A program made the translations under genes and the position numbers. Shown here piece after piece: positions 2,213 through 30,539 of a stretch of DNA of 64,000 bases. Origin of the DNA: an uncultured Actinomycetes bacterium (lineage in GTDB: Bacteria > Actinomycetota > Thermoleophilia > Gaiellales > Gaiellaceae); contig CAVYMQ010000002.1 of NCBI GenBank assembly GCA_963769665.1, positions 42,478 through 106,477 on the forward strand. The letters are read 5' to 3'. The notes under the pieces are model-generated. The model was not told the origin of the DNA. It did no database searches and saw nothing but the letters and a program-made list of their open reading frames with translations. The first letter of the stretch is position 1, and the number at the start of each line of letters is the position of its first letter.

Positions 2213-2364
2213 GCGATCTACCGTCTGTACTACCGAACCGAGCGAACTTTGCGTGAGTGGAAAGCAGCGAGCCAGGCCCAACGGAGCCGGATGTGTTCCA
2301 CCCGATGTCGTTCAGCCGTTATCGCACCCAGGAGGTCGCCGGTTCGAGCCCGGCTGGCTCCACC
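2213..2364 (+). repeat. tRNA-Ala(CGC) 3'-half-containing 150-nt element, copy 1 (possible tRNA-like sRNA or att-type site)
   Basis: 5' module GCGATCTACCGTCTGTACTACCGAACCGAGCGAA. The 3' part TATCGCACCCAGGAGGTCGCCGGTTCGAGCCCGGCTGGCTCCA corresponds to anticodon loop T-CGC-A, stem CCAGG, variable AGGTC, T arm and acceptor 3' strand. There is no D arm and no 5' anticodon stem. Confidence 0.85.
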
Positions 2365-2366
2365 TC

Positions 2367-2392
2367 AAACCCCTGCTAGGCGGGGCTTTTTT
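2367..2392 (+). terminator. intrinsic terminator following repeat copy 1
   Basis: AAACCCCTGC-TAG-GCGGGG hairpin followed by C and a T6 run at 2387-2392. Confidence 0.7.
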
Positions 2393-2627
2393 GCACGTCA
2401 AGCCCGTGGCACACGGGGCGACGTCAACCGTGCTGAGGAGCCCTGTTCCGAGGCCGCACCCTCCGATCGAAAGCCCGACCGCTGGCCGGGTAGCGCTCGT
2501 CCTTCAGTTGTGGAGTCGAGGCGCAGTGCAAGGCACAGTGCCACACACAGTGCCGGCCACCGAGCTCACCATTGTCGAACGGCTGGCGCCGAGATCGTTC
2601 TCGCCCGGCGCAAGCCGGCGCGCGGAG

Positions 2628-3377
2628 ATGAAGGACGTGCTGATCGCGCTCACGCTCTCCGATCTCCGTGCGCGCTACGGTCGCGGGCCATGGCGACTCG
2701 GGAAGTGGTTGCTCGATCCCTTCGCGGTCGTCGGCGTCTACCTCCTGCTGGTCACCTTTGTCCTGAATCGCTCGGGGAGCGCTCCCGGCCTGAGCCTCGC
2801 GTGTGCCGTGGTTCCGTTCCAGCTCATCATGTCGACGGTCATCAACGCGATGGGAGCCGTTGAATCGCGGCGGGCGATCATCCTCAACATGGGATTTCGA
2901 CGCTCACTCATTCCCGTGTCTGCCGTGATGACGGAATCTGTCGCCTTCGCGGGAAGCTTGGTCCTACTTCCCCTCATGATGGCTGCATACCAGCTGGGTC
3001 CGGCGACCTCGCTCGTTTGGCTGCCTCTCGTCCTCGCTTCAAACCTCGCCTTTGCATTTGGCTTGGCCTATCCCGCATCGCTCTTCGGGCTCGCTTTCCG
3101 CGATCTCCGCATAATCGCGGTGAGCCTCGTCCGCACGGCCTTCTTTCTTGCGGCCGGGCTGGTCGCGTTGAGCGAGATCCCTGGGCGGACCGGCGAGCTT
3201 GTGCGGCTGAACCCCCTCACCGCAATCTTCGAGTCGTACCGCGACGTCTTCCTGTTCCAGCAGCGGCCCGCAGCCTGGGAGCTCCTCTACCCGGTGGTGA
3301 CGGGGCTCGTGCTGCTCGTGGTCTTCGTCCCGGTCTACCGTCGTGAGCAACAGCACTTCGCGAAGGTGCTCGAGTGA
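2628..3377 (+). CDS. ABC-2 type (Wzm-like) glycan export permease
   Basis: ATG at 2628 lies inside ORF 2175..3377, and the upstream part of that ORF runs through the tRNA-like repeat. It has an LSDLRARYG motif near the N-terminus and multiple hydrophobic helices. The stop overlaps the ATPase start. Confidence 0.8.
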   Translation: MKDVLIALTLSDLRARYGRGPWRLGKWLLDPFAVVGVYLLLVTFVLNRSGSAPGLSLACAVVPFQLIMSTVINAMGAVESRRAIILNMGFRRSLIPVSAVMTESVAFAGSLVLLPLMMAAYQLGPATSLVWLPLVLASNLAFAFGLAYPASLFGLAFRDLRIIAVSLVRTAFFLAAGLVALSEIPGRTGELVRLNPLTAIFESYRDVFLFQQRPAAWELLYPVVTGLVLLVVFVPVYRREQQHFAKVLE

Positions 3378-4087
3378 GCGTTGCGATCAACGGCGATGAG
3401 GTGGGGGTCCGCTTCCTGCTGGATCGCCAGCGCAGACCAGTCACGCCTGCGGTTGCCCGGTTGCGGCGGCATGTCTCTGAGATCTGGGCCTTGCGCGGAG
3501 TCAGTCTTTCCATCGGCCCCGGAGAAGCCGTCGCCCTGCTGGGGTCGAGTGGGGCCGGCAAGACGACTCTCTTGCGCTCGATTGCGGGCGTCCTCCCGGT
3601 CGACGCCGGGAAGCTGGACGTTCGGGGGCGCGTGGGCGCGCTGCTGTCGACAGCCGCCGGGCTCGTCGGCCTGCTCACCGGTCGCGAGAACGCGCTGCTA
3701 CTCGGCGTTCTGGCGGGTCTGTCCGTGGCGGAGTCACGCGAAGCGCTCGAGGTTGTCAAGAGCGAGAGCGGTCTTGGAGACGCTTTCGAGCGACCGGTGG
3801 CGAGCTATTCGCAAGGCATGCGCGCGCGGCTTGGATTCGTGGCGGCGGAGAGCGCGGCCACGAACATCCTCCTCCTCGATGAAGTGCATGAAGCACTCGA
3901 TCACGACTTTCGACAACGCGTAGAGCGGCGGGCCAAGCAGATCGTCGAGTCGGGTGGCATCGTCGTCGTCGCCGGCCACGACCACCCGCTCCTCGAGCGG
4001 CTCTGTCCGCGCGCCGTGCTGATGACGAACGGGAAGGTAACCGCTGACGGGAGTTTCGAGGAGGTTCGACGTACCTATCTCGGATGA
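3374..4087 (+). CDS. ABC transporter ATP-binding protein (Wzt/TagH-like)
   Basis: Walker A GSSGAGKTT, signature YSQGM, Walker B ILLLDE. GTGA start/stop overlap with the permease gene. Confidence 0.9.
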   Translation: MSVAINGDEVGVRFLLDRQRRPVTPAVARLRRHVSEIWALRGVSLSIGPGEAVALLGSSGAGKTTLLRSIAGVLPVDAGKLDVRGRVGALLSTAAGLVGLLTGRENALLLGVLAGLSVAESREALEVVKSESGLGDAFERPVASYSQGMRARLGFVAAESAATNILLLDEVHEALDHDFRQRVERRAKQIVESGGIVVVAGHDHPLLERLCPRAVLMTNGKVTADGSFEEVRRTYLG

Positions 4088-4109
4088 GCGCGGCACCCCT
4101 GGGACGCTC

Positions 4110-5018
4110 ATGACGCCCGAGCTCGCATGCGCAGTGCTCAGCTTTCGCGACGAGCCCGGCTTGATCGATGCGGTTCGGTCTGTCCTCGATCAGTCCGACC
4201 CAGTCGAGGTGGTCGTGGCGAACTCGGGCGGCGGTGACCCGGCGGCGCGGCTCGCCGCTGCTGGAATCGACCTGCGCGTGATCAGTTTTGAGGAGCGCCT
4301 ATATCCAGGTGGGGTGCGTAACGTCGGAATCGAGGCGACGGAAGCGCCATACGTCGCCTTCCTGGCTGCTGACTGCATCGCCGAGCCGGGATGGGTGGCG
4401 GGACGACTCCGCGAGCACCGTGCAGGCGCGGCAGCGGTCGCAAGCTCGGTTTGGAACGCGTTCCCGGATTCGACGTGCGCTTGGGCGTCGCTTCTCCTCC
4501 TTCACAGCCGTCTTACGGAGCTCAACAAACCCGGGCAGCGGCTGCTGTACGGGCTCTCGTACGACCGCCGTCTATTTGAGCGCTACGGCCTCTTCCGCGA
4601 GGATCTCCGAGCCGGAGAGGACACCGAGTTCAACGCCCGGCTCGGGCCTGAAGCGCGGGTGGTCGCCGCACGCGGTGTTCGAACGGCGCATCGCTATCCA
4701 ACCGAAATTCCTGCGATGCTGCAGGACGCATATCGTCGGGGACGCCTCCAGGCTGCGATGTTGGGCGCGATCGCAGGTGGTGGCAGCCCAAAAACTGCGA
4801 CCGTCGTCAGCCGGGGTCCGCAGAACATTCTGCGATCGTTCAGGTGCGCTTGGCGGGCGCCAAGAGAGCAACGGCGTCGCTTTCTCAGCGCTTGGCCGTT
4901 GGTCCCTGTCGCCGGAGTCGTGTACGCGGCGGGTGCGGTTTCCGCGCGCTGGCGGCCTTACGACGGCTTTGATGCCGTGAAACCCGCGCGGCGTGTGACC
5001 GAGAATGTACGCGCGTAG
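4110..5018 (+). CDS. glycosyltransferase family 2
   Basis: N-terminal CAVLSFRDEP...VVVANSGG Rossmann-like start, FLAADC acidic motif and GEDTEF motif. It sits in a glycan gene cluster. Confidence 0.75.
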   Translation: MTPELACAVLSFRDEPGLIDAVRSVLDQSDPVEVVVANSGGGDPAARLAAAGIDLRVISFEERLYPGGVRNVGIEATEAPYVAFLAADCIAEPGWVAGRLREHRAGAAAVASSVWNAFPDSTCAWASLLLLHSRLTELNKPGQRLLYGLSYDRRLFERYGLFREDLRAGEDTEFNARLGPEARVVAARGVRTAHRYPTEIPAMLQDAYRRGRLQAAMLGAIAGGGSPKTATVVSRGPQNILRSFRCAWRAPREQRRRFLSAWPLVPVAGVVYAAGAVSARWRPYDGFDAVKPARRVTENVRA

Positions 5019-5066
5019 TTTCGGCGGGTACGCCGCACGGTCGTACCTCGTCGTGTCGCGAGTCAA

Positions 5067-5843
5067 CTAGGTGTATCCGCGTCGGCGATCGATCGGCGTG
5101 AGACGCAACTGTCGCTCATCCGTTAAGTACCCATAGCCAATGCGCTGCCACCGAGCATTGGGATCGGCGAGCTCGTAACGGCGCCGACGTGCCAAGCGGT
5201 CTTCGCGCTCGATCATCCCGAGGTGATAGATCGTGATGTCAGCGAGTGGAAACCAGCGGCCGAATCGGCGGGATTGAAGAGGAGCCTTGATGCCGTGGAA
5301 CGGCGTTTGATCGAACGCATGGTCCTCGCGCGCCTTGTAGAGCCGAACCACGGTTTTCCGGCCCCAGCGTCCGTCGGAACGAAATCCGGAGGTCGAGTCC
5401 CATAGCTCGCGAAGCCGCACGGAGTACGCCCGAAGCCCGAAGAAGCGTCCGCGATGAATTACGCGCTCGGCGCGGACGCGGAAATCGCGTTCGAGGCGCT
5501 CGTCTGCGTCGATGCTGAGAATCCAGTCTGCGCGGTGGCGTATCGCTGCATTGACGAGTGCGCGGTGGTTTCCCACTTCGTCCCAAACAGGCCGGTCAGC
5601 CGGGACGCGGAGAAGCTCGAGCACACTCTCGCAAGCCTCCAAGAACTCTGCCGAGCCGTCTCGGGAACCGTCGTCGAGCGCAACGATCCCGTCGACGTGC
5701 GGAGCGACGTTGGTGATGAAACCGGGGAGGTAGTGCATCTCGTCTCGTACCGGGACGAGCGCGAGCAGGCGGACGCGTCGTCGGTCGGCCGTATCTGGGC
5801 CGCCCGAAGGGACTGCGGGGAGCCGGAGCAGGCGCTCGAGCAC
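5067..5843 (-). CDS. glycosyltransferase 2-like protein (paralog A of 10296..11075)
   Basis: DDGSRDGS and DADE motifs. I chose GTG at 5843 because the longer ORF to 6320 is Arg/Pro-rich and overlaps the upstream GT2 gene. It aligns over its full length with the product of 10296..11075. Confidence 0.75.
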   Translation of the reverse strand: MLERLLRLPAVPSGGPDTADRRRVRLLALVPVRDEMHYLPGFITNVAPHVDGIVALDDGSRDGSAEFLEACESVLELLRVPADRPVWDEVGNHRALVNAAIRHRADWILSIDADERLERDFRVRAERVIHRGRFFGLRAYSVRLRELWDSTSGFRSDGRWGRKTVVRLYKAREDHAFDQTPFHGIKAPLQSRRFGRWFPLADITIYHLGMIEREDRLARRRRYELADPNARWQRIGYGYLTDERQLRLTPIDRRRGYT

Positions 5844-5911
5844 GACCAGATTCTCGTAGCTTAGCTCGGCGATGCCATCAGACCGCCGACTAGTCGTGTC
5901 TGGACGGTTAG

Positions 5912-6841
5912 CTACTCGAGGCCGGCGCTGCGGTCGCCCGACCGCGCGCGGCGCCGATCGAGTAGGTGCGCCGCGAGGCCCGCGGGGACCGCCGCGATGG
6001 ACGTGAGCAGGTGCACAACATGGAGGCCGACGCCGACAATCGCGCCTCCCGCGCCCTGTCGCCGGAGGAGGAGCGCGTAGAAGCGGCGGTTGAGCGCGAG
6101 GAACGCAAGCGAAGAACCGGCGGCGATAACAGGGCGGCGGCGGATCAGCGCCCCGAGCGTCAGCAGACAGGCGAGTGCGCTCAAGCGATGCCTCCAACCG
6201 AGGTTCAGCGCCCGCGACATCGTTCGCTTGCGGGCGAGCAGAACCACCCACGGCACGCCGCGACCGAGAAAATCGGTCCGGATCATCGTTCCGAGCGTCC
6301 AGCGCTTCAAGTGGGTGCACTGAAGCTCCGGGTCGAGCAGAATACGCCCTCCGGCCGCCGACACCCGCATTCCGAGATCGACGTCTTCCAACGTCGAAAG
6401 GCGCTCGTCGAAGCCGCCGACGTCGGCGAAAATCTGCCGGCGGATTGCACCCAAGCCGGTCGAGAATGTCGTCGCGGGCCCCGCGGACGATTGATGAACG
6501 TGGTGGTGGAGGAGGTTTCGGAAGACGGAGACCGTCCCTACCGCCGGCGGCTCGTCGTCGAACGAGCCAAAGACTGCTGCCAGCCCGGCGTCGGCGAACG
6601 TTGCACGCAGCCTCTGAAAGGCGTCGGGGTGCACGACGACGTCTGCGTCGACGAAGACGAGGATCTCCCCGTTCGCTCGCCCTGCGCCGTCGTTTCGAGC
6701 TGAGGCCGGTGCCGCGAGCGCCGGTTCATGGACAACGATCACTTCCTCCGGCGGCTCTTCTGCGCACTTGATGGCGTGGAGACACCGCTCGAGCGTCGGC
6801 GGGCGATCCGTCGCCGGAACGATGACGCTGAGGCTGGGCAC
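5912..6841 (-). CDS. glycosyltransferase family 2 with C-terminal membrane segments
   Basis: SVIVPATDRPPTLERCL, ARNDGAGRANGEILVFVDADV and hydrophobic C-terminal helices. Confidence 0.85.
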   Translation of the reverse strand: MPSLSVIVPATDRPPTLERCLHAIKCAEEPPEEVIVVHEPALAAPASARNDGAGRANGEILVFVDADVVVHPDAFQRLRATFADAGLAAVFGSFDDEPPAVGTVSVFRNLLHHHVHQSSAGPATTFSTGLGAIRRQIFADVGGFDERLSTLEDVDLGMRVSAAGGRILLDPELQCTHLKRWTLGTMIRTDFLGRGVPWVVLLARKRTMSRALNLGWRHRLSALACLLTLGALIRRRPVIAAGSSLAFLALNRRFYALLLRRQGAGGAIVGVGLHVVHLLTSIAAVPAGLAAHLLDRRRARSGDRSAGLE

Positions 6842-6909
6842 CGCTCGATTCTAGGAACGTACAGCGGCCGCAGAGCTGGACGTTTGCATCGGCGGGTTAC
6901 GCTTTTTGG

Positions 6910-8580
6910 ATGGTCGGTCTCGCGTCTCGCCTCGCCGGAATGCAGCTGCGCCGACCGCTCGAGGCGGTAACCGAGACGGTTCGGCGTTTCGCGCTCGAGC
7001 CCGCGTACATCGCGCTCGTTCTGATTTGCATCGGCCTGATTCTTCGCATCGCCAACTTCGCGAGCAACGCGTCGCTGTGGCTCGACGAAGCGTTGCTCGC
7101 ACTCAACCTCCGGAATCGAGACTTCTCCGGCGTCTTGGGGACGCTCGACTTTCACCAGACTGCGCCGCCCCTGCACCTGATTGCGCACAAGGCGTCGGTT
7201 CTCGTTCTCGGTGACAGCGAGTACGCGCTGCGGGCGTTCCCACTCATGGCCGGGATCGCAGCGCTTGCGTTGTTTCCCGCCGTCGCCCGCCACTTCCTCG
7301 ACCGCTGGGCGGCTGTCCTCGCGCTCGGCCTCTTCGTCGTGCTCGGGCCGCTGATCGCGATCTCGGGCCAGGTGAAGCATTACTCAACCGACGTCGCAGT
7401 CGCCATCCTCCTCCTCTACGCGATCTCGCGGTTTCCGGCGTCGCGTCCGCTCCGGCTGCATGAAGCGGTGGCGTTCGGATGTGTCGGGGCCGTCGCGCCC
7501 TGGCTCTCGTACCCTGCGATTTTCTATCTCGCGGGTTTCGGCGTTGTCGTTGTCGGAGCGATCATCGCCCGACGACGGTGGCGCTCGTTGCCGACGCTCG
7601 TGATTCCGGCCGCGCTCTGGACTGCAAGCGTCGTGCTGTTGCTGTTCTACGCCCTCGATCGCGTTCGCGCGGTGCAGACGTCGCTGCGTGGAGACCCGAA
7701 CGCCTATGCCCCGCTTGCGTCGAGCGGGTCCGACTTGAGATGGTTCGTCGACGCGCCGGAACAGCTGCTCCGCGAATCTGCCGGACTCGCGTACGTGCCT
7801 GTCGCTACTGCGCTCGCGCTCGTCGGTCTCGCGTCGCTTCTCAGGCGCGACCCGGAGCGCGGACTGCTCCTCGCTTCGCCGCTGCTCTTCGCCGTCGTCG
7901 CATCCGCTCTCGACAAGTATCCGTTCGGCGGAAGGTTCAGCTTCTTTTACGTTCCTGTGCTGGTGTGCCTCGTGGCCGGAGGCGTCGATGCGATTGCGAA
8001 AGTCGCTGGCCTGTTCGTTCGACGTTTCGGAGGTCCGCGACTGACCGCCGCGACGGCGGTCGTGACCGGCCTCGCGCTCGTTGCCGTCATCGGACACACG
8101 TCCGCGCGCTCTGCCGCTCGAAACCTCGTTGCCCCGTCGGGACGCGAGGAGATCAAGCCGCTGCTCGAGCGCATGCAGCGCGAATGGAAGCGCGGGGACG
8201 CCGTCTACGTGTACTTCGCTGCTCAATACGCGTTTCGGTACTACGCCGAATGCAACGATTGCGGAGTCGCCGACCGCACCGGCGCGACGCGTGAGCTCTG
8301 GGCGCGCGTGCGGCCCACGGAAGGGCGGGAAGGGTGGGCACGGGCGGTAGCCTCACGTCCGCCGAAGCTCGTCGTCGCGACGGAAAGCAGTAACCACGTC
8401 GCCGAGCTGAACGGCTTGCGGGGAGAGGAGCGGGTCTGGGCGCTCTTTTCGCATGTCGGCGGTCGCCATCAGGCGATCGTCGCGGCCGTCGTCGCTCGTC
8501 TTGATGCGCTCGGAAGGCGCGTCTCGAAGCGCGAGACGAAGGGAGCCGTTTTGTACCTCTACGACCTCGGGAGCCGGTAG
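6910..8580 (+). CDS. membrane glycosyltransferase, GT39/ArnT-like (PMT family)
   Basis: About 10 or more hydrophobic helices, an N-terminal RIANFASNASLWLDEALLALNL motif typical of ArnT/PMT-type enzymes, and a soluble C-terminal domain. Confidence 0.7.
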   Translation: MVGLASRLAGMQLRRPLEAVTETVRRFALEPAYIALVLICIGLILRIANFASNASLWLDEALLALNLRNRDFSGVLGTLDFHQTAPPLHLIAHKASVLVLGDSEYALRAFPLMAGIAALALFPAVARHFLDRWAAVLALGLFVVLGPLIAISGQVKHYSTDVAVAILLLYAISRFPASRPLRLHEAVAFGCVGAVAPWLSYPAIFYLAGFGVVVVGAIIARRRWRSLPTLVIPAALWTASVVLLLFYALDRVRAVQTSLRGDPNAYAPLASSGSDLRWFVDAPEQLLRESAGLAYVPVATALALVGLASLLRRDPERGLLLASPLLFAVVASALDKYPFGGRFSFFYVPVLVCLVAGGVDAIAKVAGLFVRRFGGPRLTAATAVVTGLALVAVIGHTSARSAARNLVAPSGREEIKPLLERMQREWKRGDAVYVYFAAQYAFRYYAECNDCGVADRTGATRELWARVRPTEGREGWARAVASRPPKLVVATESSNHVAELNGLRGEERVWALFSHVGGRHQAIVAAVVARLDALGRRVSKRETKGAVLYLYDLGSR

Positions 8581-8680
8581 CGACGCGAGCAACCCTGGTC
8601 CGGAGCGACAGTCGGCCGCTGCGAACCAGTACTTTCGGGGGAAGAGAAGCTGGAAGCTGCGCGCTTGAATCGGGCGTCTA

Positions 8681-10249
8681 ATGGCAGATGCGGCACGCAG
8701 GCCGCTCCCGCTCCCGTTGCCGTTCGAGGCATTGAACGGTGACGGAGCACACATAGAGCCCGATCGTCGGCGAATCGGCTCTGGCGGCGGCGATTCGGCG
8801 TCGATCGGCACAGCGGTGCTCGGAGCCGGCCCCGCCGGCTTGACCGCTGCGTACGTCCTCAGCCGTCGCGGTGAGCGCGGCGTCGTCTTCGAGGCCGACG
8901 GAACCGTCGGCGGTCTTGCGAAGACGGTCGAGTTCAACGGCTATCGCTTCGACCTCGGAGGCCATCGGTTCTTCACGAAGCTGGCACCCATCCAGCGCTT
9001 GTGGGAGAGCGTCCTCGGCGCCGATTTCCTCGTCCGACCGCGCCTCTCGCGCATCTACTACCAGCAGAAGTACTTCTCGTACCCGCTCGCAGCGCGCGAG
9101 ACCGTCCTCCGGCTCGGCGTTGTCGAGTCGGTTCGTTGCCTGGTCTCGTACCTCGCAAGCCTAAGGCCGAGGCGCGCAGCTCCCGAGACGTTTCAGGACT
9201 GGGTGACCGCGCGGTTTGGTCGCCGCCTGTACGACGCGTTCTTTCGCTCCTACACCGAGAAGGTGTGGGGCATCCCCGGATCCGAGATTCGCTCCGAGTG
9301 GGCGGCCCAGCGAATCAAGGACTTCTCCTTAGCATCGGCGATCCTTTCCACTCTCCGCCTCGAGCGCCGGCAAGTAACGACGCTCATCGAAGAATTCCGC
9401 TACCCGCGCCTCGGGCCCGGCCAGATGTGGGAGGCGTTCCGCGAGCTGATCGAGGACGCCGGGATCGAAGTGCAGGTCAACCGGCCGTGCACCGCAATAG
9501 ATCACGACGGCTCGCGCATCAAGTCGGTTGCCGTCGGAGCGAACGGCTCGCAACTCGTGCACCCCGTCGATGCTGTGCTGTCGAGCCTGCCGTTGGGTGA
9601 GCTCGTCCTGATGCTAGAACCGGCGGCTCCGCCCGAGGTCGAGGCGGCGGCAAACCGCCTGCGGTACCGGGATCTCTGCGTCGTCGCGCTCATGACCACG
9701 CAGGCAGAGCCGTTCCCCGACAACTGGATCTACATCCACGATCCGGGAACGCGAGCCGGCCGCGTGCAGAACTTCGGCGCGTGGAGCCCGGATCTCGTTG
9801 TGCCCGGAACAACATGTCTCGGAGTCGAGTACTTCTGCTTCGAGGACGACGACATCTGGAAGATGAGTGACGCGGAGGCGGTCGCGCTCGCGACGAGTGA
9901 GCTCGATCGGATCGGACTCATCGATCCCGCACAAGTCTTCGACGGCATCAAGATCAGGGTTCCGAAGGCGTATCCGATGTACGACCGCCACTACGAGGAG
10001 AGCGTCGCGATGATTCGCGTGTACTTGGAGCGGTTCGAGAACTTGCGGACGTTCGGACGGAACGGACTCCATCGCTACAACAACCAGGACCACTCGATGT
10101 GGACGGCGATTCTCGCGACGCTCGACCTCCTCGACGGCGAGGGCGAGGATGTCTGGTCGGTCAACACCGAAGCCGAATATCACGAGCAGGGAGAGATGAC
10201 CGATCTGCTGCTCGACCTCGAACGCGTCGGCGCCCTCGCACCTGCGTGA
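8681..10249 (+). CDS. FAD/NAD(P)-binding oxidoreductase (amine-oxidase / UDP-galactopyranose-mutase-like)
   Basis: Dinucleotide-binding VLGAGPAGLTAAYVL...VFEADGTVGGLA motif and the downstream GGHRFF motif. The exact start is uncertain. Confidence 0.8.
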   Translation: MADAARRPLPLPLPFEALNGDGAHIEPDRRRIGSGGGDSASIGTAVLGAGPAGLTAAYVLSRRGERGVVFEADGTVGGLAKTVEFNGYRFDLGGHRFFTKLAPIQRLWESVLGADFLVRPRLSRIYYQQKYFSYPLAARETVLRLGVVESVRCLVSYLASLRPRRAAPETFQDWVTARFGRRLYDAFFRSYTEKVWGIPGSEIRSEWAAQRIKDFSLASAILSTLRLERRQVTTLIEEFRYPRLGPGQMWEAFRELIEDAGIEVQVNRPCTAIDHDGSRIKSVAVGANGSQLVHPVDAVLSSLPLGELVLMLEPAAPPEVEAAANRLRYRDLCVVALMTTQAEPFPDNWIYIHDPGTRAGRVQNFGAWSPDLVVPGTTCLGVEYFCFEDDDIWKMSDAEAVALATSELDRIGLIDPAQVFDGIKIRVPKAYPMYDRHYEESVAMIRVYLERFENLRTFGRNGLHRYNNQDHSMWTAILATLDLLDGEGEDVWSVNTEAEYHEQGEMTDLLLDLERVGALAPA

Positions 10250-10295
10250 TCGAACGCGCGGCCTCGGCTAGCCGACCCCGCAGCCTGCGCAGCTG

Positions 10296-11075: not shown

Positions 11076-11107
11076 ACCGCCCACGCTGTAGCAGGCGGCG
11101 CGCCGTA

Positions 11108-11839: not shown

Positions 11840-11844
11840 TGCGG

Positions 11845-21895: not shown

Positions 21896-21918
21896 CCGGT
21901 CTAGTCGCGCCCCGGGCT

Positions 21919-21953
21919 ATGGGCCGACGCGTTCCCAAACGCCTTCGGCCCAT
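21919..21953 (+). terminator. hairpin downstream of RidA gene
   Basis: ATGGGCCGA...TCGGCCCAT 9-bp stem with inner GCGTT/AACGC pairing. The T tract is weak (CATTCTCC). Confidence 0.4.
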
Positions 21954-22269: not shown

Positions 22270-24699
22270 GTGGCGCGTGAGGCGATCGCGTCGCTGCGCC
22301 TAACCCCAGTGCTTTTCGAGCAGGGCGCACGGCCGCACGTTCCCCGCGATTTGTATACGGCCTACGTCGATCAGTGCGACGTGTTCGTGGGCATCTATTG
22401 GCAGAGCTACGGCTGGGTCGCACCGGGAGGCGCTGTCTCGGGACTTGAGGACGAGTACGAGCTCGCGCGGGGTAAACCTAAGCTGCTGTACATAAAGGAG
22501 CCGGCGTTCGATCGCGAGGAACGCCTGCGCGTGCTCATCCGGCGCATCGAGGACGAGGCCGGCCCTGCGTACCGGACGTTCTCCACAGTCGAGGAGTTGG
22601 GGCGGATTGTGAGAGACGACCTCGCCCTGCTGCTCACCGAGCGCTTCCACGCGAGCACCGACGAGCGCGACCAGCGGTCAGAGCTCCCCGCGCGCACGAC
22701 CTCGTTCGTCGGTCGCGACCACGAGGTCAACGAAGTGTCGCGTCTGGTCGAACGAAGCGATGTTCGGCTCGTCACACTTACCGGCCCGGGCGGCATCGGC
22801 AAAACGCGGCTTGCCGTTGAGGCCGCGCGCCGGCTGGCTCCGCGTTTCCGAGAGGGCGCGGCCTATGTCGCCCTCGACCGGGTTGCGGATCCGGAGCTCG
22901 TGCCGGCAGCCGTCGCTGACGCGGTCGGGTTGCCCTCTCTCGGCCCGGACCCGGTGGATGCTCTGGCTCGTCGCCTGCGTGAGCGGCATCTCCTGCTTGT
23001 CGTCGACAACTTCGAGCACGTTCTGGCTGCCGCTCCTCTACTCACGCAGCTGCTCGAGGCCTGCGAGCAGCTGGAGGTGCTCGCAACGAGCCGCGAGCCT
23101 CTACGCCTACAGGGTGAGCACGAGTACAGCGTCCCGCCCCTTGAGGCTGCCCCAACTCTCTTCATGGAACGAGTCGCGGCGATGCGGCCCGACGTCGTCT
23201 GGAACGAAGAGAACGTGCGTGCTGCGGGTGAGATCTGTGCTCAAGTCGATCATCTGCCGCTTGCAGTCGAACTCGTGGCGGGCGCAGCGCGTCTGTTTTC
23301 ACCGAGTGTCCTGGTTGAACACATTGAGTCCTCGCTTGACGCGCCCTCGACCGGGCGACGAGACGCGCCGGCGCGCCAGCAGACGGTGCGCGCCACGATC
23401 GACTGGAGCTACGGGCTGCTGAATGAAGACGAGCGTGACCTCTTCGAGCGACTTGGCGTATTCGCCGGCTCGTTCACGATCGAAGCGGCTGGTTCGGTCG
23501 CGGGCGAGCAGGCACTGGCAGTTCTCTCGACGCTCTCTGCGCTCGTGGACAAGAGCCTGCTCGTGCATGCGGCGTCAGAGTCTGAGACCCGTTTTCGCAT
23601 GCTTCGGGTCGTTGCGGAGTATGCAGCTGAGCGGCTCTGCGATCGGGCGGACGCGGAGGACATCAGTGTCGCGCATGCGGAGTACTACGCCGATCTCGCC
23701 CGAGCCGCGTACTCCGGATTGCGGGGAAGCGAGCAGCGAGGCTGGAAGGACACTCTCGACTTCGAGCGTGAGAACATTCGCCGCGCTGTCGGGCACCTCG
23801 CTCGAACCGGACGCGTGGACGAAGCTGCTGATCTGGTTTGGTCGGTGTGGGTGTACTGGCTCACCGGACACGTGCTGGAGGGACGAAAGCTCGCCGGTGA
23901 TCTCCTAGCTTTGACCCGCGAGCTCTCCGAGCGGGGACGTGCCCGTCTCCAAACTGTCGAGGGAGTACTCGCGGGACTTCTGTCCGACATCGGCACCGCC
24001 CAGGCAGCACTCGGCCAGGCAACGGCCTGGTTTGAGGAGCACGACGACAACGAGGGAAAGGCGAGCGCGCTCGCCGGGCTCGCGCTTGCGACTGCCCCGG
24101 TCGACCCCGAACGCGCCCGATCGCTGATGCTCGAGAGCGCGAGCTTGTTTGCGGGGATCGGCGATGCGTGGGGGGAGGCGATCGTCCTAGGGTCGCTGGG
24201 GTGGCTGGATACAGGCCGAGGCGACTTCAGCGAAGAACGCCTCTTCGAGCGCGCGTACGCCCTCGCCCGCCACGTGGACGACGAAGTAGCGACAGCGCAC
24301 ACAGCCACGAACCTTGCCGAGCTGCGCCTGGCCAGCGGGCAAGCCGACGAGGCGCGTGACGCGCTGGACACTGCACTCACGGCCCTTGAGGCCGTGCGGC
24401 TTTACGACGGCCTTTCGTATTCACTCGAAGCTACCGCCCGGCTCGCCAAGAGCGACAATCGCTCCCACGAGGCGGCTCGCCTGCTTGGGGCGGCCGATGG
24501 GCTGCGTGAGGAGGTGGGCATGCCGATCTGGGGCCCACGACTAAGCCGCTTCGAAGCGCTCGCGCAAACCGTGAGGAGTGATGTTGGCGAGGCCTCGTTC
24601 GCGGCCCGCTGGGCGGAAGGGCGCACACTCAGCTTCGACGCCGCGCTGGCAACGGCCCGTGACATCCTGCACGGCGCCGAGGCTGACGTGCGTTCTTGA
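22270..24699 (+). CDS. STAND-type NTPase with TPR C-terminus and DUF4062-like N-terminal module (N-terminus interrupted by a frameshift)
   Basis: P-loop GPGGIGKTRLA, Walker B LLLVVDNFEH, an ARQQT..ATIDWSY block and TPR-like repeats. The N-terminal REAIASL...CDVFVGIYWQSYG resembles DUF4062. The RVFVSSTLRE start of that domain lies upstream in another frame. Confidence 0.8.
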   Translation: MAREAIASLRLTPVLFEQGARPHVPRDLYTAYVDQCDVFVGIYWQSYGWVAPGGAVSGLEDEYELARGKPKLLYIKEPAFDREERLRVLIRRIEDEAGPAYRTFSTVEELGRIVRDDLALLLTERFHASTDERDQRSELPARTTSFVGRDHEVNEVSRLVERSDVRLVTLTGPGGIGKTRLAVEAARRLAPRFREGAAYVALDRVADPELVPAAVADAVGLPSLGPDPVDALARRLRERHLLLVVDNFEHVLAAAPLLTQLLEACEQLEVLATSREPLRLQGEHEYSVPPLEAAPTLFMERVAAMRPDVVWNEENVRAAGEICAQVDHLPLAVELVAGAARLFSPSVLVEHIESSLDAPSTGRRDAPARQQTVRATIDWSYGLLNEDERDLFERLGVFAGSFTIEAAGSVAGEQALAVLSTLSALVDKSLLVHAASESETRFRMLRVVAEYAAERLCDRADAEDISVAHAEYYADLARAAYSGLRGSEQRGWKDTLDFERENIRRAVGHLARTGRVDEAADLVWSVWVYWLTGHVLEGRKLAGDLLALTRELSERGRARLQTVEGVLAGLLSDIGTAQAALGQATAWFEEHDDNEGKASALAGLALATAPVDPERARSLMLESASLFAGIGDAWGEAIVLGSLGWLDTGRGDFSEERLFERAYALARHVDDEVATAHTATNLAELRLASGQADEARDALDTALTALEAVRLYDGLSYSLEATARLAKSDNRSHEAARLLGAADGLREEVGMPIWGPRLSRFEALAQTVRSDVGEASFAARWAEGRTLSFDAALATARDILHGAEADVRS

Positions 24700-24786
24700 C
24701 CCGAAATAGACGCTCCGCGCGACCTCATCGGCCGGACCGCCAAAGGTGCTGCGGTCGATCACGCAGAGTGGACTGCATGTCAAGCG

Positions 24787-25089
24787 GTGGCCATGATCGG
24801 TCTCCTCGAGCTCGACCGCGCGCGGGCAAGGTGGATCGCCACAACGAAGTCGCTGGCCGGAACACCTCTCGGCGCGCTCGAGGTGCGCGCCGCACGTCCG
24901 ATCGGCGCGTACGACGTCTACGCCCTGGCTGTGGACTTCCTTCTGCGAGGAACAGAGCCTGCCTCGCTATCGGCTTACCTTGAGGCGATCGGCCGAGGAG
25001 CCCCCTGGCGAGCAGCATTTGCCACCACGTTCGGCATGACGATCGAGACCTTCTTCGTCGAGTTCGCCGCCTATCGCCAGACGCTGTAA
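24787..25089 (+). CDS. hypothetical protein
   Basis: 100-aa ORF with reasonable GC3 and a globular-looking sequence. No motif was recognised. Confidence 0.4.
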   Translation: MAMIGLLELDRARARWIATTKSLAGTPLGALEVRAARPIGAYDVYALAVDFLLRGTEPASLSAYLEAIGRGAPWRAAFATTFGMTIETFFVEFAAYRQTL

Positions 25090-25224
25090 ACGTTCCGCGC
25101 CCCGGAGGTGACGGCGTTCGCCAGGTCGGGGTCTTAAGGGCATCGCAACTCGTCCTTAAGCGCTCCGTCGCACTGTGAGGCGGTCAACGCAGAGCCCTCA
25201 CAGGGCGGAAAGGAGCGTCAGGAG

Positions 25225-25788
25225 ATGATCAGGTCGGGAGACACCCTTGAGAACCCCGTCACGGGGGAGCGGATCGTGTTTCGGAAGACCGCAGCCGACA
25301 CCGGCGGAGCCCTCGTCCTGGTCGAGTGCGTCGTGCAGCCGGGGGGAGCCGTCGCGGCGGCGCACGTGCACCCGCACCAGGAGGAGCGTTTCGAGGTCCT
25401 GCGAGGGAGCGTCGGGTTCCGGCTCGGACGCAAGAAGAGCGTGGCCGGTCCAGGAACAAGGATCAGCGTGCCCGCAGGGACACCGCACAAGTTCTGGAAC
25501 GCGGGTCCGGACGAGGCGCACTTCGTCTGCGAGATCAGGCCCGCGCAGCAGTTCGAGCAACTGATCGAGACGATGTTCGGCCTCGCCGCGGATGGCAAGA
25601 CGAACCGTAAGGGGATGCCGAACCCCCTTCGCCTCGCGGTGATCGCGGACCACCACTTCGGCGACCTGCGCCTGCCGCTCGTGCCCGCCTGGATGCAGCG
25701 CGCAGCCCTCTCGCTGGGCGCCCCGCTCGGCCGGCTTCTCGGCTACGACGCCCGGTACGTGCCGGCCGGCGAGGTGGTCGCAGCGTGA
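25225..25788 (+). CDS. cupin domain protein
   Basis: Good SD (GGAAAGGAG). It has the cupin motif G..VAAAHVHPHQEE.F.V..G followed by PAGTPH. Confidence 0.8.
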   Translation: MIRSGDTLENPVTGERIVFRKTAADTGGALVLVECVVQPGGAVAAAHVHPHQEERFEVLRGSVGFRLGRKKSVAGPGTRISVPAGTPHKFWNAGPDEAHFVCEIRPAQQFEQLIETMFGLAADGKTNRKGMPNPLRLAVIADHHFGDLRLPLVPAWMQRAALSLGAPLGRLLGYDARYVPAGEVVAA

Positions 25789-25913
25789 TCGGCCGCCGCT
25801 TCAGGCGTCGAGCGCTCGTCGGGCTGCTCTTCCTCTGCCTGTGTGGTTTCGCCCTCCTGGGATTCATCTTGCAGGCGGCGGCCCTGGTCGAGAGGCGAAC
25901 CGCGGCAACGTAG
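25785..25913 (+). CDS. possible 42-aa membrane micro-protein
   Basis: GTGA overlap with the cupin stop. The sequence is VIGRRFRRRALVGLLFLCLCGFALLGFILQAAALVERRTAAT, a single TM helix. Confidence 0.35.
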   Translation: MIGRRFRRRALVGLLFLCLCGFALLGFILQAAALVERRTAAT

Positions 25914-25940
25914 AGAGAGGATGAGTCTGGGGGGGCCGTC

Positions 25941-28751
25941 ATGCGGCCCCCCGCCCTGACGTTGACCGGGGGCGTCCCCGGGGGGAGACTTAGGCCCCGC
26001 TCACCGGGGGTCACCCACCTGTCTCATTTGCTCGAATTCCGAGTCCTCGGCCCGCTCGGGGTCGCGCGTGGCGCCGAGGAGCTCCAGCTCCCGGGCCGCA
26101 AGCCTCGCGCCCTGCTTGCGTACCTGCTGTTGCATGCGAACGAGACCCTCTCCCGCGATCGCCTGATCGACGCGCTCTGGGGCGAAGAGCCGCCGCAGAC
26201 AGCAGCGAACGCACTGCAGGTGCACGTCCATGCGCTGCGTCGCGCGCTCGGCAGGGATCGACTGGTGACCCACGGCTCGGGTTACACGGTCCGCGTCCAC
26301 GAAGGTGAGCTCGATCTCCATCGGTTTCTCGATCTGTTCGCCCGCGGCACGGCGGCGCTCGGCGACGGTCGGCTCGAGGAGGCGGATCGCCTGCTTGCCG
26401 ACGCGCTCGCGCTCTTTCGCGGTCACCCCCTCGGGGAGTTCGCCGCGGAACCGTTCGCCTCGGCAGAGCTCGGACGTCTCGAGGAGTTGCAGTTGGCGGC
26501 TCGTGAACGTCGCCTCGAAGCGGCCGTTGAGCTCGGCCGACACGCTGACGCGCTCGGCGAGCTCGAGACGCTCGTCCGCGAACAGCCCCTGCGGGAAGGC
26601 GCGCGTGCTCTCCAGATGCTCGCCCTCTACCGCTCGGGCCGGCAAGCCGAAGCGCTCGGGGCCTACGCCGAAGCCCGGCGGGTGCTCGTGGACGAGCTCG
26701 GACTCGAGCCGGGACGTGCGCTGCAGGAGCTCGAAGGACGGATCCTGCGCCACGATCCCTCGCTCGACGCGACACGGCCGCGAACAGCGCACGGATCCCT
26801 GCCGGTCCCCGCCTCGCCGCTCATCGGTCGCGAGCTCGAGCTCGCCGCGACCGCCGCGCTGCTGCGCCGCGACGATGTCCGACTGTTGACGCTCTGCGGT
26901 CCCGGCGGCACCGGCAAGACGCGACTCGCGCTGGCGCTGGCGCATGAGCTCCAGTCCGCGTTCGCGGACGGTGCCGCCTTCGTCGACCTTGCCCCCGTGG
27001 AGGACGACGTCCTCGTCCCGGGTGCCGTCGCCGCGGCGCTCGACGTGACCCGAGCGCCCGGCCGCTCTCTGCACGAGTCGATCGCGGAGGCGGTGCGATC
27101 GTCGCGCCTCCTCGTCGTGATCGACAACTTCGAGCACGTGCTCGGCGCCGCGACGCTGGTGTCGGACTTGCTCGCGGCAGGATCCGGGATCAGCGTGGTC
27201 GTGACGAGTCGCGCTCGTTTGCGACTTGCAGGGGAGTACGCCTACGACGTGCCGCCGCTCGCCGAAGACGATGCCGTCCGCCTCTTCGTCACCCGTGCGC
27301 AAGCGGCGGACCGCGCGTTCGAGCTCACCGAGACCAACACGGAGGCAGTGAGAGCGATCTGCCGCGGCGTCGACGGGCTGCCTCTGGGCATCGAGCTTGC
27401 GGCGGCGCGAAGCCGGCTGTTTCCAGCGGAGGTCTTGGCCGCCCGGCTCGGCAGTCGGCTGTCGCTCCTGACCACGGGCACACGCGACGCGCCCGCGCGT
27501 CAGCAGACCCTCCGCGCGACGATCGACTGGAGCTACCGGCTCCTCGAGCCAGAGGTGCGTCGAGCGTTCGCGCGCTTCGGCGTCTTCGCCGGCGGCTGCA
27601 CGATCGACGCGGCGGAGGTGGTCTGTGACGCGGACGTCGAGTCAGTGGCGACCCTCGTCGAGAGCAGCCTCGTGCAGCGAGCCGGCGAGCGGCTCACGCT
27701 CCTCGAAACGGTGCGCCATTACGCGCTCGAACGTCTCGACGAGGAAGGCGCCGAAGCACGCCGCGCGCACGCCGAGTACTTCGTCGCGTTCGCCGAGCGC
27801 GCTGAGCCTCACGAGACGGCGTCGCTCGAGAAGCTCGAGCACGAGCACGACAATCTTCGAGCCGCTCTCGCGTTCGCGCGGCAGCACGGCCCGGCCGAAC
27901 TGCAACTGCGGCTGTGCAACGCCCTCTGGCTGCTCTGGTACGTCCGCGGCTTCCTCGCGGAGGGGCGCAACGAGTTCCAGGCAGCGCTGGCCAGTGGATT
28001 GGGCGGACCCGTCCTCCGTGCCGAGGCCCTGAGGGCCGCCGCCGTGCTCGCCTGGGCTCAGGGCGACCTCGACCGCGCGGAGGCCGACGTCGAGGAAAGC
28101 ATTCCGCTGTACCGCGCGCTCGGCGACGATGCCGGTCTCGCCGGATCGCTCATCACGGCGGGACTGATCGCTCAGGACCGCGGCGAACTCGCACTCGCAA
28201 AGGAACGGCACGAAGAGTCGCGCCAGCTCGCAGAGGCCGCTGGTCACCGCCGCCGAGAAGGGGCCGCCCTGGCCAACCTCGGTGACGTTGCACTCCTCGA
28301 CGGCGACATCGCCGGAGCGTGGGATCTGTACCGCCGGAGCGAGGCCGTCTGCGCGACCGCCGGTGACGACCGCGGCCGCGCAATCGCGCTCATGTCGTTC
28401 GGGATCCTCTCCCTCCGTGCGGAGCGAGACGTGCCGGCCGCGCGGCGATGGTTCCGCGAGAGTCTTGAAGTCTTCGCGAGGATCGGCCATACCGAGCGGG
28501 TAGTGAGCTCCCTCACAGGACTCGCTGCCGCGACCGCCCCGACGGACGCCGAGCTCGCCGCGCGGATGCTCGGCGCGGCGGCCGGCCTGCGTGCCGCCAT
28601 GGGCCTCCGCATCGAGGCGTGGTGGGAGCAGCCCGTAATCGATGAGGCGACTGCAGCACTGGAACAGGAACTCGGCGACGCGTTCGCCGCTGCGACTGCT
28701 GCCGGGCGAGCGATGCCGGAGGAGACCATGCGCGACGCGCTCGCGTCCTGA
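25941..28751 (+). CDS. SARP/BTAD-family transcriptional regulator fused to STAND NTPase and TPR repeats (AfsR-like)
   Basis: N-terminal winged-helix/BTAD ([11 protein letters not shown]...LLAYLLL...[12 protein letters not shown] helices), P-loop [21 protein letters not shown] and a TPR tail. The start may be TTG 26028. Confidence 0.9.
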
Positions 28752-28765
28752 CTCGCGACGGCCCG

Positions 28766-28850
28766 ACGGTTGTACTACCGAATGCTCGACACGAAAGTTG
28801 CACGTCTTACGTTTGACCGTGAGGAGGGGGGTGTTCGGCTCAACCTCCCG
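28766..28850 (+). repeat. degenerate, internally shortened copy of the tRNA-half element
   Basis: GACGGTTGTACTACCGAATGCTCGACACGAAAG resembles the 5' module of copy 1. About 25 nt later, GAGGAGGGGGGTGTTCGGCTCAACCTCC resembles AGGAGG...GTTCGrGCyC...CTCC of the tRNA half. Confidence 0.4.
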
Positions 28851-29022
28851 CCGCGGTCGATCGGGCATGGGATCAACTCCGTGTTCCACGCGACGCACCG
28901 CCAGAACTTCCTCGTGCCGCCGCGTGCGCACCGCTCCTTCCCTCTGTCTGAATTGCGATCGTAGCGGCGCGTTCTCGCGAGGTGTCCACGGCCCCGACAT
29001 CGCCTCGTCAGGGCAGCACGCG

Positions 29023-29174
29023 TCGATCTACCGTCCGTGCTACCGAACTGAGTGAATTTCATGTCATCCGGGCGCAGCGAACGTGGCTCAATGACGCCCA
29101 ATCTGTACAACGTGAGGTCGTTCGGCCGATATCGCACCCAGGAGGTCGCCGGTTCGAGCCCGGCTGGCTCCACC
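29023..29174 (+). repeat. tRNA-Ala(CGC) 3'-half-containing 150-nt element, copy 3
   Basis: 5' module TCGATCTACCGTCCGTGCTACCGAACTGAGTGAA. The 3' 43 nt are identical to copy 1. It is followed by an AACCC...GGGTT hairpin and CTGTTGT. Confidence 0.85.
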
Positions 29175-29476
29175 TCAACCCCTGCTTCCGCGTGGGTTCT
29201 GTTGTCCCCGGTGGCGACACTACGCGACGCAGCAAATGGCGGGACCTCGTCGACGGCTGGGAGTTCGACTCCTGCGCTTGTACCGGGCCCGCCGAAGGCG
29301 CACACTGTGGGCGTCACGCGGTATCGGATGGGAGGGGGCGATGCGAAACGCACTTGTCTTCGTGGCGTCGGTGGCAGTCGCAGCAGTGTTCGTCCGGGTC
29401 TATGCGCACGAGATCTACACGCTGCGTCCCCCTCAGCGGTAGGTATTCCGTGTGGTAGGCCCGGTCGGCCGTAGCG

Positions 29477-29785
29477 GTGCCGGAGTCGCCGGCGCGCCCG
29501 GCGGAGGCGCCGTCGTCAACATCCACACGAACGGACTGCGATGCCGTCCCCGGGACATATCAGGTCTCGCTGAACGTGTTCCCGACGAGCATGAATTGTA
29601 CGGGCGCGACCTTCGCGGTTCCGACTGCGACGATCACCACGAATGCGATCGGAAACGGCTTGGCCGACTTCAAGTTCACCCCTGCGGACGTGGCGGCGTT
29701 CCGCGGCATGACGTTCAGCATCAACTGGACGGTTGTCGGGCCTGCGACGTACAAGACCGCCTGCACGGTCGTCGCCCTCGACTGA
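29477..29785 (+). CDS. small Cys-containing hypothetical protein
   Basis: Clear high-GC3 coding signal from about 29530. There are four Cys and a beta-rich sequence. The GTG start is uncertain. A separate signal-peptide-like mini-ORF lies upstream at 29341..29442. Confidence 0.5.
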   Translation: MPESPARPAEAPSSTSTRTDCDAVPGTYQVSLNVFPTSMNCTGATFAVPTATITTNAIGNGLADFKFTPADVAAFRGMTFSINWTVVGPATYKTACTVVALD

Positions 29786-29965
29786 TCACACCGCGACGGG
29801 CCGGAATCGGCGTCGATTTCGGCCCGTGTAGCGCCGAGAGACCGAGCGGGCTTGGGCGCGTGGACAACTCGCGTGAAGATGCGCTTTCCAGGACGAAGGG
29901 GCGCGCCAACTGCGCGTGGAGGGAAAAGCGGTGAACCTCGTTGCACGAATAGTTCTGCGTAACTC

Positions 29966-29994
29966 TTGACGCGCCGCTCGCAGAAGTGCACAAT
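29966..29994 (+). promoter_or_regulatory. sigma70-like promoter candidate
   Basis: TTGACG, 17 nt, then CACAAT, in a locally low-GC stretch. AAAGGAGG lies about 25 nt downstream. Confidence 0.35.
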
Positions 29995-30255
29995 GCTTCG
30001 TTCACGTTCCGCACACGAAAGGAGGTCAGCTTTGAATTTCGATCCACTTAATGCGAGCTGGCCTCTCGGTGCGGACACGGTCCGCGGCTAAGACCCAGCG
30101 CGCCACACAGAGTCCTGCTCGTCGGTAAAACCTGCCGGTGCAGCAGCCAGCCGCCGCACGTCACGCGTGCGGCCGACAGAAGGGAGACGCGTCCGTGGGA
30201 CGCCTGTTCCGTGCATCGCCAAACGCCCCTGCGACCAATGTGGAGAGGAGGAAGC

Positions 30256-30432
30256 ATGTATTACGAAGAGCTCGAACAGCGGACCCGTGATCACCGCAGC
30301 CAGCTGATGCGCGAGGCTGAGCAGGCGCGGCTGCGGGCGGCATCACGGACGCAGCGCCAGTGGCGCCGATCTCGCGCGTTGGCCGCAACGCTCCAGCTGC
30401 TCCACTCGCGTAGGACGTCGGCGCACGCGTGA
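30256..30432 (+). CDS. 58-aa hypothetical protein (charged helical, REAEQARL type)
   Basis: Strong SD GGAGAGGAGGAAGC before ATG 30256. The sequence is MYYEELEQRTRDHRSQLMREAEQARLRAASRTQRQW... and is followed by a strong hairpin. Confidence 0.5.
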   Translation: MYYEELEQRTRDHRSQLMREAEQARLRAASRTQRQWRRSRALAATLQLLHSRRTSAHA

Positions 30433-30443
30433 CCGGCACGTCA

Positions 30444-30476
30444 AGAGGGGCGCCCGCTCTCGAGCGGCGCCCCTCT
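30444..30476 (+). terminator. strong hairpin after the 58-aa ORF
   Basis: AGAGGGGCGCC...GGCGCCCCTCT forms an 11-bp perfect stem. There is no clear T tract. Confidence 0.5.
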
Positions 30477-30480
30477 AAGT

Positions 30481-30539
30481 GACGCCGTTCGATTGATATC
30501 GCACCCAGGAGGTCGCCGGTTCGAGCCCGGCTGGCTCCA
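30481..30539 (+). repeat. tRNA-Ala(CGC) 3'-half element, copy 4 (3' part only)
   Basis: GACGCCGTTCGATTGATATCGCACCCAGGAGGTCGCCGGTTCGAGCCCGGCTGGCTCCA. Identity to the other copies stops at the discriminator A, and the 5' module is absent. Confidence 0.85.

Follow-up and report, generated by a model that had tools for sequence, protein, structure and literature searches.

Repeat units ending in a tRNA-Ala(CGC) 3′ part as probable attR-type junctions between integrase-less islands in a Gaiellaceae genome

The DNA analysed here (the window) is a 64-kb stretch of contig CAVYMQ010000002.1 from an uncultured Actinomycetes bacterium of the Gaiellaceae, and it carries three repeat units of 150 nt together with one 5′-truncated copy, all on the + strand. 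Each unit ends in the 3′ part of a tRNA-Ala(CGC) gene, here called the core, which is preceded in the full units by a longer region, the P arm. The blocks that lie between successive units measure 10.0, 16.8 and 1.4 kb and contain genes on both strands. The units are most probably attR-type junctions, composed of P arm and core, of tyrosine-integrase elements that target tRNA-Ala(CGC) in Gaiellaceae and other Thermoleophilia. The features of the units and their immediate surroundings are the following.

2213–2362, + strand: unit 1, with P arm 2213–2320 and core 2321–2362; probable attR-type junction (nhmmer E 3e-35)
2214–2238, + strand: putative arm-type direct repeat of unit 1 (CTACCG-N6-CTACCGAAC); intact elements have homologues on both the P and the P′ side, overlapping the integrase 3′ end
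2370–2392, + strand: hairpin with T run following unit 1; it is the terminator of the tRNA gene and accompanies the core
12237–12386, + strand: unit 2, with P arm and core 12345–12386, the latter with two T-arm substitutions (E 1.5e-35)
12238–12262, + strand: putative arm-type direct repeat of unit 2, a 25-nt module match
29023–29172, + strand: unit 3, with P arm and core 29131–29172 (E 2.9e-37)
29024–29048, + strand: putative arm-type direct repeat of unit 3, a 25-nt module match
30475–30539, + strand: unit 4, 5′-truncated, with about 22 nt of core-proximal P arm and core 30498–30539; model positions 89–153 (E 3.2e-17)

The three full units have the sequence that a first-pass annotation of the window had described for them. 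The 25-nt 5′ module has three matches in the window and a 29-nt T-arm/acceptor pattern has four matches on the + strand, while neither pattern occurs in 100 shuffles. A profile of 61 units matches only four places in the 64 kb, at 2212–2362, 12236–12386, 29022–29172 and 30475–30539. Full-unit length is exactly 150 nt in the window and likewise in eight of the nine full units of other genomes, and the three direct-repeat modules of the window are intact while all of the surrounding sequence differs. The fourth copy had rightly been taken as short, but the profile match gives it about 65 nt from 30475 rather than 59 nt from 30481; it is without the distal arm and the direct repeat. Directly 5′ of this copy, in the place of the distal P arm, a strong inverted repeat with 11-nt arms is found at 30444–30476 (AGAGGGGCGCC ... 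GGCGCCCCTCT) and probably represents the terminator of a sequence that was inserted or joined at this point.

The core occupies the last 42 nt of each unit and extends from the anticodon loop to the discriminator base. In unit 1 the identity to the tRNA begins at A2321, where the loop ATCGCAC starts; the earlier assignment to a tRNA-Ala 3′ half is thus upheld by comparison with intact relatives, with a length of 42 nt instead of 43. From the first base of the anticodon loop onwards the core is identical to the intact tRNA-Ala(cgc) genes of L005 (4926–4998) and L007 (1057–1129) and likewise of L133, the intact genes of relatives reading ...CCTGG-ATCGCAC-CCAGGAGGTCGCCGGTTCGAGCCCGGCTAGCTCCA (L-numbers designate stretches of relative genomes or metagenomes, and P0001–P0120 the integrases listed). 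ARAGORN detects no tRNA anywhere in the window, which begins 2.2 kb before unit 1, and the units have neither a 5′ acceptor strand nor a D arm, in agreement with the earlier statement that no copy can be a functional tRNA. The acceptor 3′ strand differs among copies (TGGCTCC, CAGCTCC, TACCTCC, TCGCTCC) with no compensating 5′ partner within the unit. Both T-arm substitutions previously noticed in unit 2 are recovered in the pattern search; one alters the T loop (A to G) and the other weakens a T-stem pair. These changes and the truncation of unit 4 show that constraint of the tRNA type does not act on the tRNA part. A split, permuted or two-piece tRNA, or a transfer-messenger RNA (tmRNA), was dropped as a candidate because the Ala anticodon lies in the core, the core equals an ordinary tRNA gene and the relatives own an intact tRNA-Ala(cgc). 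The homology that had been seen to run past the tRNA end into hairpins is real, since the hairpin CCCTGCT..GGCGGGG after unit 1 also follows the intact tRNA-Ala in L133, and it corresponds to the terminator of the tRNA gene. A phage or plasmid origin was also rejected: the matches to phage and plasmid collections, which lie beneath the core, are annotated tRNA-Ala genes and nothing else matches, and viral-contig scans gave nothing or chance matches.

The 108 nt upstream of the core constitute the P arm region. Across 61 non-redundant diverged units (alignment A4), which align nearly gapless, a series of sequence blocks in this region keep their positions: the direct repeat CTACC(R)-N6/7-CTACC(R)AAC-TGAG, another (G)AACTGAG, a GCTTGAACAAGC-type palindrome and CGGCG(T/A)T beside the loop. 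The repeat pair of the window, CTACCG-N6-CTACCGAAC, has a 12-bp period and is located about 101 nt from the crossover region; the palindrome takes the form GGCCCAACGGAGCC, and CGGCCGAT adjoins the core. Fixed spacing and sequence blocks without RNA structure fit a protein–DNA (nucleoprotein) assembly site, within which the GCTTGAACAAGC palindrome may be a protein-binding site.

RNA structure is what would be expected if the units were instead a family of tRNA-like small-RNA genes with their own terminators, the second possibility raised by the first-pass annotation. The units are intergenic and fixed in length at 150 nt, a hairpin is present 3′ of each of them, a T run being noted after unit 1, and RNAalifold applied to three sequences paired the module with the T-arm region, all of which speaks for such genes. 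This long-range pairing vanishes, however, with 61 sequences, for which the T arm is the sole consensus helix and the covariation term is −0.02, so that no covariation is seen outside the T arm. For two candidate local hairpins, one being TGAG..CTCA and the other the GCTTGAACAAGC palindrome, 79.1% of cells are paired, compared with 77.0% after column shuffling and with 99% for the T-arm control, and folds of either strand are no stabler than those of dinucleotide shuffles (z −0.6 to +1.1). No Rfam family is matched in the window at gathering thresholds, the hairpin that follows the unit belongs to the tRNA as its terminator, the 5′ acceptor strand and D arm are lacking, and the module recurs downstream of the core and within integrase genes, which an RNA gene leaves unexplained. 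Small-RNA genes are therefore an extremely improbable explanation. An integron cassette array of attC sites was rejected as well, with no integrase in the window, no hairpin potential above shuffles, and blocks of 1.4–16.8 kb with genes on both strands. A coding unit, suggested by two variable module positions 3 nt apart and by an open reading frame (ORF) that crosses the module as DLPSVLPN*, was ruled out by stops in every frame, the lack of a 3-nt periodicity, and upstream ORFs that are short and unrelated. There is a partial truth behind the coding idea, in that the repeat overlaps the C-terminal codons of the integrase in intact relatives.

Integrases are linked to att sites of this kind in L045, L123 and L133 at tRNA-Ala and in L134 and L135 at tRNA-His. 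The first-pass annotation had proposed to look outside the window for an integrase next to an intact tRNA-Ala; the relative L133 has an integrase in an element bounded by one. The element there spans about 9 kb and displays, in order, tRNA-Ala(cgc) at 2418–2493, a P′ repeat near +70, small ORFs, a protein of 534 aa whose match to a RepB primase is weak (RepB_primase_C, E 1e-3), an excisionase-like HTH_17 gene, the integrase at 10001–11194, about 100 nt, and the tRNA-Ala 3′ half. The last 17 codons of this integrase (GTTPGTKPSETERTEVT*) are the direct repeat GGTACTACGCCGGGTACTAAACCGAGCGAA. Similarly, L134 and L135 have an L133-like design at tRNA-His(gtg), in which two cargo genes separate the integrase from the P arm; neither an FtsK-like Tra nor any further conjugation gene was recognised in L133–L135. 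The tRNA-His units themselves (L134, about 12400–12560; L135, about 12510–12611) comprise a direct repeat, some 100 nt and the tRNA-His 3′ half, and their integrases, P0009 and P0011, are close relatives within the family of the L045 integrase that target tRNA-His(gtg). The arrangement in L045 consists of a unit followed by a direct repeat of its own variant, GGTACC-N6-GGTACCAAAC, the same variant being present in its P arm, and then by a tyrosine integrase, which is encoded on the other strand and oriented towards the core. This integrase has 4,171 relatives at E ≤ 1e-20, of about 400 aa and with a Phage_integrase domain, and the named ones belong to Actinomycetota, Solirubrobacterales and Thermoleophilaceae metagenome-assembled genomes (MAGs).

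The P′ repeat lies at a fixed distance of +63 to +70 nt from the tRNA end in ten junctions and is always direct, never inverted. P and P′ repeats carry the element's own hexamer: GTACTA in L133 and L135, GCTACTA in L134, GGTACC in L045 and CTACY in others. A tandem C-terminal peptide that is the translated arm repeat is found in 30 of the 120 integrases listed (GAKRGAKLSES, GPNSGPNLSETE, GTNSGTNLSETE and others), and the window module read in the corresponding frame gives STVGATELSES. The integrase ORF extends into its own putative binding sites, and its C-terminal tail would thus be shaped by constraint at the DNA level. On these grounds the 5′ module is a candidate P-arm pair of arm-type sites to which the integrase would bind.

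The relationship between units and intact tRNA genes is visible in other relatives. In L007 a full unit follows an intact tRNA-Ala of the same strand after 630 bp. The intact tRNA-Ala of L005 adjoins typA, and L003, whose TypA is 91.5% identical, has only the tRNA 3′ half there, as expected if an element had integrated at that position. The unit is widespread in Gaiellaceae, in other Thermoleophilia genomes and in environmental metagenomes, with more than 120 loci in all. A scan of species-representative genomes with the 5′ module gave nine stretches, all from Gaiellaceae or uncultured Actinomycetes MAGs, and a scan of metagenomes for junctions, in which TAT was required before the anticodon loop to exclude intact tRNAs, gave at least 120 stretches of environmental contigs. 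Among the metagenome matches listed, 13 contigs have two or more junctions, 1.1–6.4 kb apart. The orientation of the unit is always that of the intact tRNA, and units frequently form arrays on one strand.

Partial forms are also present, namely the module without the tRNA half (L002, L003, L005, L006) and the tRNA half without the module (unit 4, L003). The module-only copies, at about 3163 in L003, 5702 in L005, 183 in L006 and 2613 in L002 (oriented coordinates), retain the direct repeat and part of the P-arm centre. A near back-to-back pair of units occupies 337–560 of L089 (oriented), where the first unit is full and another direct repeat comes at +65, succeeded by a centre of reduced length and a diverged stretch that resembles a tRNA half (GAATCGCTCCCGGGAGGTCGCCGGTTCGAGTCCGGCT); the pair looks like the remnant of two junctions from between which an almost entire element was deleted. 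In L013, L036, L042 (two), L043, L049, L050, L060, L067, L073 and L081 the tRNA-Ala 3′ half is preceded by a P arm of a second type. This type occurs in taxa with a T arm GGCGG/CCGCC or GTCGG/CCGAC, has repeats ATCCGCG / TATCCG, carries either CTCTAGAATG or CTCCAGAGCCGAAAAC as its central block, and presumably represents a different element family with the same target.

Many copies per genome in unrelated gene neighbourhoods, along with the module-only and half-only variants, could suggest a small non-autonomous mobile or duplicating repeat that happens to include a tRNA fragment, either resembling a miniature inverted-repeat transposable element or arising by segmental duplication with gene conversion. 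The copies nevertheless share one strand in every array, that is in 13 of 13 metagenome contigs, in the window and in the 914-kb contig CAWBFA010000002.1, which holds at least four copies on a single strand. No terminal inverted repeats or target-site duplications accompany the units, and no transposase is nearby, either in the window or among the 25 top-ranking Pfam families of 84 neighbour proteins. The centres of the units are strongly diverged among copies, also within one genome, which misfits recent copying. A repeat of this kind is accordingly very unlikely to account for the units.

The blocks of the window are integrase-less islands bounded by P-arm-plus-core junctions. That these junctions record serial integration at tRNA-Ala is supported by the same-strand tRNA-Ala upstream of a unit in relatives, by the complete element of L133, by the P and P′ repeats that vary together and by the 13 of 13 contigs with a shared strand. 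The att-scar interpretation offered by the first-pass annotation is retained as far as serial integration is concerned, but not in its P-O-P′ hybrid sites, the window junctions having only the P arm and the core. The 42-nt core, continuing into the tRNA terminator, would be the identity segment for strand exchange. Successive elements would enter the same tRNA gene, each integration regenerating the tRNA at the left end, and the older elements, each ending in a P-arm-plus-core junction, would be pushed to the right to generate a same-strand array. An intact tRNA would in that case lie upstream of the window. The window blocks would have arrived as such elements, with repeats bound by their integrase; their left-end modules, comprising the P′ arm, integrase, excisionase and replication genes, would later have been lost by deletion, so that the cargo remains between junctions, and the distal arm of the fourth junction would have been replaced. 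The stacking of islands at tRNA genes is an ordinary, well-known bacterial mechanism, and the host group is little studied.

Several observations weigh against this interpretation. A search with a catalytic-motif regular expression and by tblastn with 120 integrases detects no integrase or integrase remnant in the window (best tblastn E > 0.04), and together with the ARAGORN result this agrees with the earlier remark that neither an integrase nor an intact tRNA-Ala is present. The window similarly contains no excisionase, replication gene or P′ repeat, and we infer the mobile-element origin of its blocks from their boundaries only. No empty site was recovered for the window islands, the closest relative, L001 (82–94% protein identity, two genes), being rearranged. 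Of 69 sampled junctions whose downstream flank reaches 1.5 kb or more, only three have an integrase; orphan junctions may be over-represented in this sample, since the TAT pattern left out canonical attR sites, the one in L133 (GGGATCGCAC) being an example. Integrases found attached to units belong to the sister variants GGTACC, GTACTA and GCTACTA, through which the link is made, and none was found directly attached to a unit with the exact CTACCG-type module. The module-only copies of L003, L005 and L006 occupy a chromosomal position that is shared by different species, behind greA and some 2.6 kb away from tRNA-Ala/typA, which a simple attR or P′ model leaves unexplained. Finally, scars so common and so well preserved call for recent decay or continued use. 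The first-pass annotation had regarded the lack of an integrase as what makes the arrangement odd; with an integrase at so few junctions, absence is the rule and the window is not exceptional in this respect. The sampled loci display stages of decay, from P-O-P′ with integrase (L045, L123) through P-O-P′ without integrase (eight loci) to P-O only (43 module-bearing junctions).

Continued use forms the basis of another explanation, in which the junctions are still functional and the integrase-less blocks are cis-mobilizable and cassette-like, being excised, shuffled or co-transferred by an integrase encoded elsewhere in the genome. The P arm shows hardly any indels across the 150 nt of 61 diverged units, the three direct-repeat modules of the window persist amid differing surroundings, and junctions far exceed integrases; moreover, cis-mobilization has been proposed for 15 integrase-less ssrA islands (PMC3146451). 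Without P′ arms, however, there is no attL-type partner, so canonical single-island excision is impossible and only recombination between like junctions would be left. Circular junctions or alternative arrangements were not seen, the comparison for selection is limited to one diverged orthologous pair, and the T-arm changes of unit 2 and the truncation of unit 4 look like decay. Junctions in present use are therefore considered unlikely. Taken further, the tRNA-Ala locus would be a cassette platform, where integrase-less blocks between functional P-arm-plus-core sites are exchanged, reordered or co-mobilised by an integrase acting in trans. This extension is equally doubtful; if true, it would constitute a functional analogue of the integron built from heterobivalent att sites at a tRNA gene, and it would explain both the junction-to-integrase ratio of more than 20 to 1 and the nearly indel-free 150-nt spacing in diverged copies.

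Under serial integration, the preferred interpretation, the sequences between the junctions are island cargo, and their contents are as follows.

2363–12236: island 1, with an ABC transporter, four GT2 glycosyltransferases, a flavin amine-oxidase-like enzyme and a LytR_cpsA_psr-like protein; no integrase
12387–29022: island 2, with an SRPBCC protein, a fatty-acid desaturase, an amine-oxidase/DUF1365/CMAS cluster, an acyltransferase, a methyltransferase, RidA, a STAND NTPase, a cupin and a SARP regulator; no integrase
29173–30474: island 3, of 1.3 kb, with small ORFs only and no Pfam family match

GC content is 0.64–0.67 across most of the island region and 0.69–0.72 in the rest of the window. 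The boundaries, the lower GC and the accessory-type genes all count for the islands as acquired. Directly upstream of unit 1 lie genes for a VWA-domain protein (2–1045) and a Ser/Thr protein kinase (1059–2165), with a GC of 0.68–0.70, above that of the islands, and with no integrase. The cluster at 14566–17740 of island 2 encodes an amine-oxidase-like flavoprotein, a DUF1365 protein and a cyclopropane-fatty-acid-synthase-like methyltransferase, and it is adjoined by the fatty-acid desaturase (13566–14501, − strand) and the acyltransferase (17737–18318); together these genes are a lipid-tailoring module carried as island cargo. Island 2 also contains two large STAND NTPases (22270–24699 and 25941–28751), one combining DUF4062, NB-ARC and TPR and the other a SARP-type regulator with BTAD, NB-ARC and TPR. 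A defence system was considered for these NTPases and rejected, PADLOC having given only generic TPR and AAA matches.

For the large integrase family to which the L045 enzyme belongs, the comparison of window and relatives defines an att architecture in which a core of 42 nt is preceded by a P arm of 108 nt, arm sites in direct repeat lie near −101 and +65, and one repeat extends over the 3′ end of the integrase. A conspicuous repeat would thereby be explained without a new RNA, and about 28 kb of the window would be marked as horizontally acquired islands at tRNA-Ala whose cargo comprises cell-envelope glycan genes, lipid-tailoring genes and regulators. The junction signature may be used to delimit islands in MAGs of the Thermoleophilia, an abundant and poorly studied soil group, and the high share of integrase-less junctions is a lead on whether such islands stay mobilizable.

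The architecture resembles that of lambda-type heterobivalent attP sites, in which direct-repeat arm sites are located on P and P′ at fixed distances from the core, with accessory-factor sites between them, and in which spacing is conserved while sequence is free. For the present elements the likeness is one of sequence, and the repeat overlapping the integrase stop region is the P repeat in L133 and the P′ repeat in L045.

Tandem islands at a small-RNA gene are known from Dehalococcoides (McMurdie et al. 2011, PMC3146451). There the ssrA islands are delimited by a repeat of 20 bp from the 3′ end of the gene, a conserved motif precedes this repeat, and the integrase ORF overlaps att; 15 islands, about half, are without an integration module and have been proposed to be cis-mobilizable. 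The two systems share a row of islands downstream of one small-RNA gene, direct repeats of its 3′ end, an extra motif upstream and an integrase ORF that runs into att. In contrast, the Dehalococcoides islands target the tmRNA with a 20-bp repeat and a T-loop crossover and use a CcrB-like serine recombinase, hence have no arm-type sites, whereas the present units have 42 nt plus the terminator, a crossover region at the anticodon loop and a retained 108-nt P arm with arm-type repeats.

Among actinobacteria, AICESav3728 and AICESav3708 of Streptomyces avermitilis, both of them integrative and conjugative elements of actinomycetes (AICEs), are integrated in tandem in one tRNA-Arg gene with a 44-bp att between them, and the attB of AICEs overlaps the tRNA 3′ end (te Poele et al. 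2008, PMC2440964). AICEs such as pSAM2, SLP1 and pMEA300 have in common with the elements described here their actinobacterial hosts, a tyrosine integrase with an excisionase and an att copy between tandem elements; L133 further agrees with them in its similar size (about 9 kb), its int, its HTH_17 xis-like gene and its weak RepB-primase match. AICEs nonetheless carry int, xis, replication and FtsK-like transfer genes in about 9–24 kb, while no Tra was recognised in L133–L135, the hosts are Thermoleophilia and not Actinomycetes proper, and the window islands are without an AICE backbone. Similarly, the tycheposon islands of Prochlorococcus (Hackl et al., bioRxiv 10.1101/2020.12.28.424599) are built by tyrosine-recombinase elements at tRNA genes, new arrivals displacing older ones. 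They differ in phylum, in unrelated integrases and att arms, and in that a long length-conserved arm with every partial tRNA is not reported there. No description of the present integrase family in Gaiellales or other Thermoleophilia was found in the open-access literature searched. Thus, the window is a new example of the known tandem island arrays targeted to tRNA genes, and what distinguishes it is the host group, the long length-conserved P arm that accompanies every copy and the rarity of the integrase.

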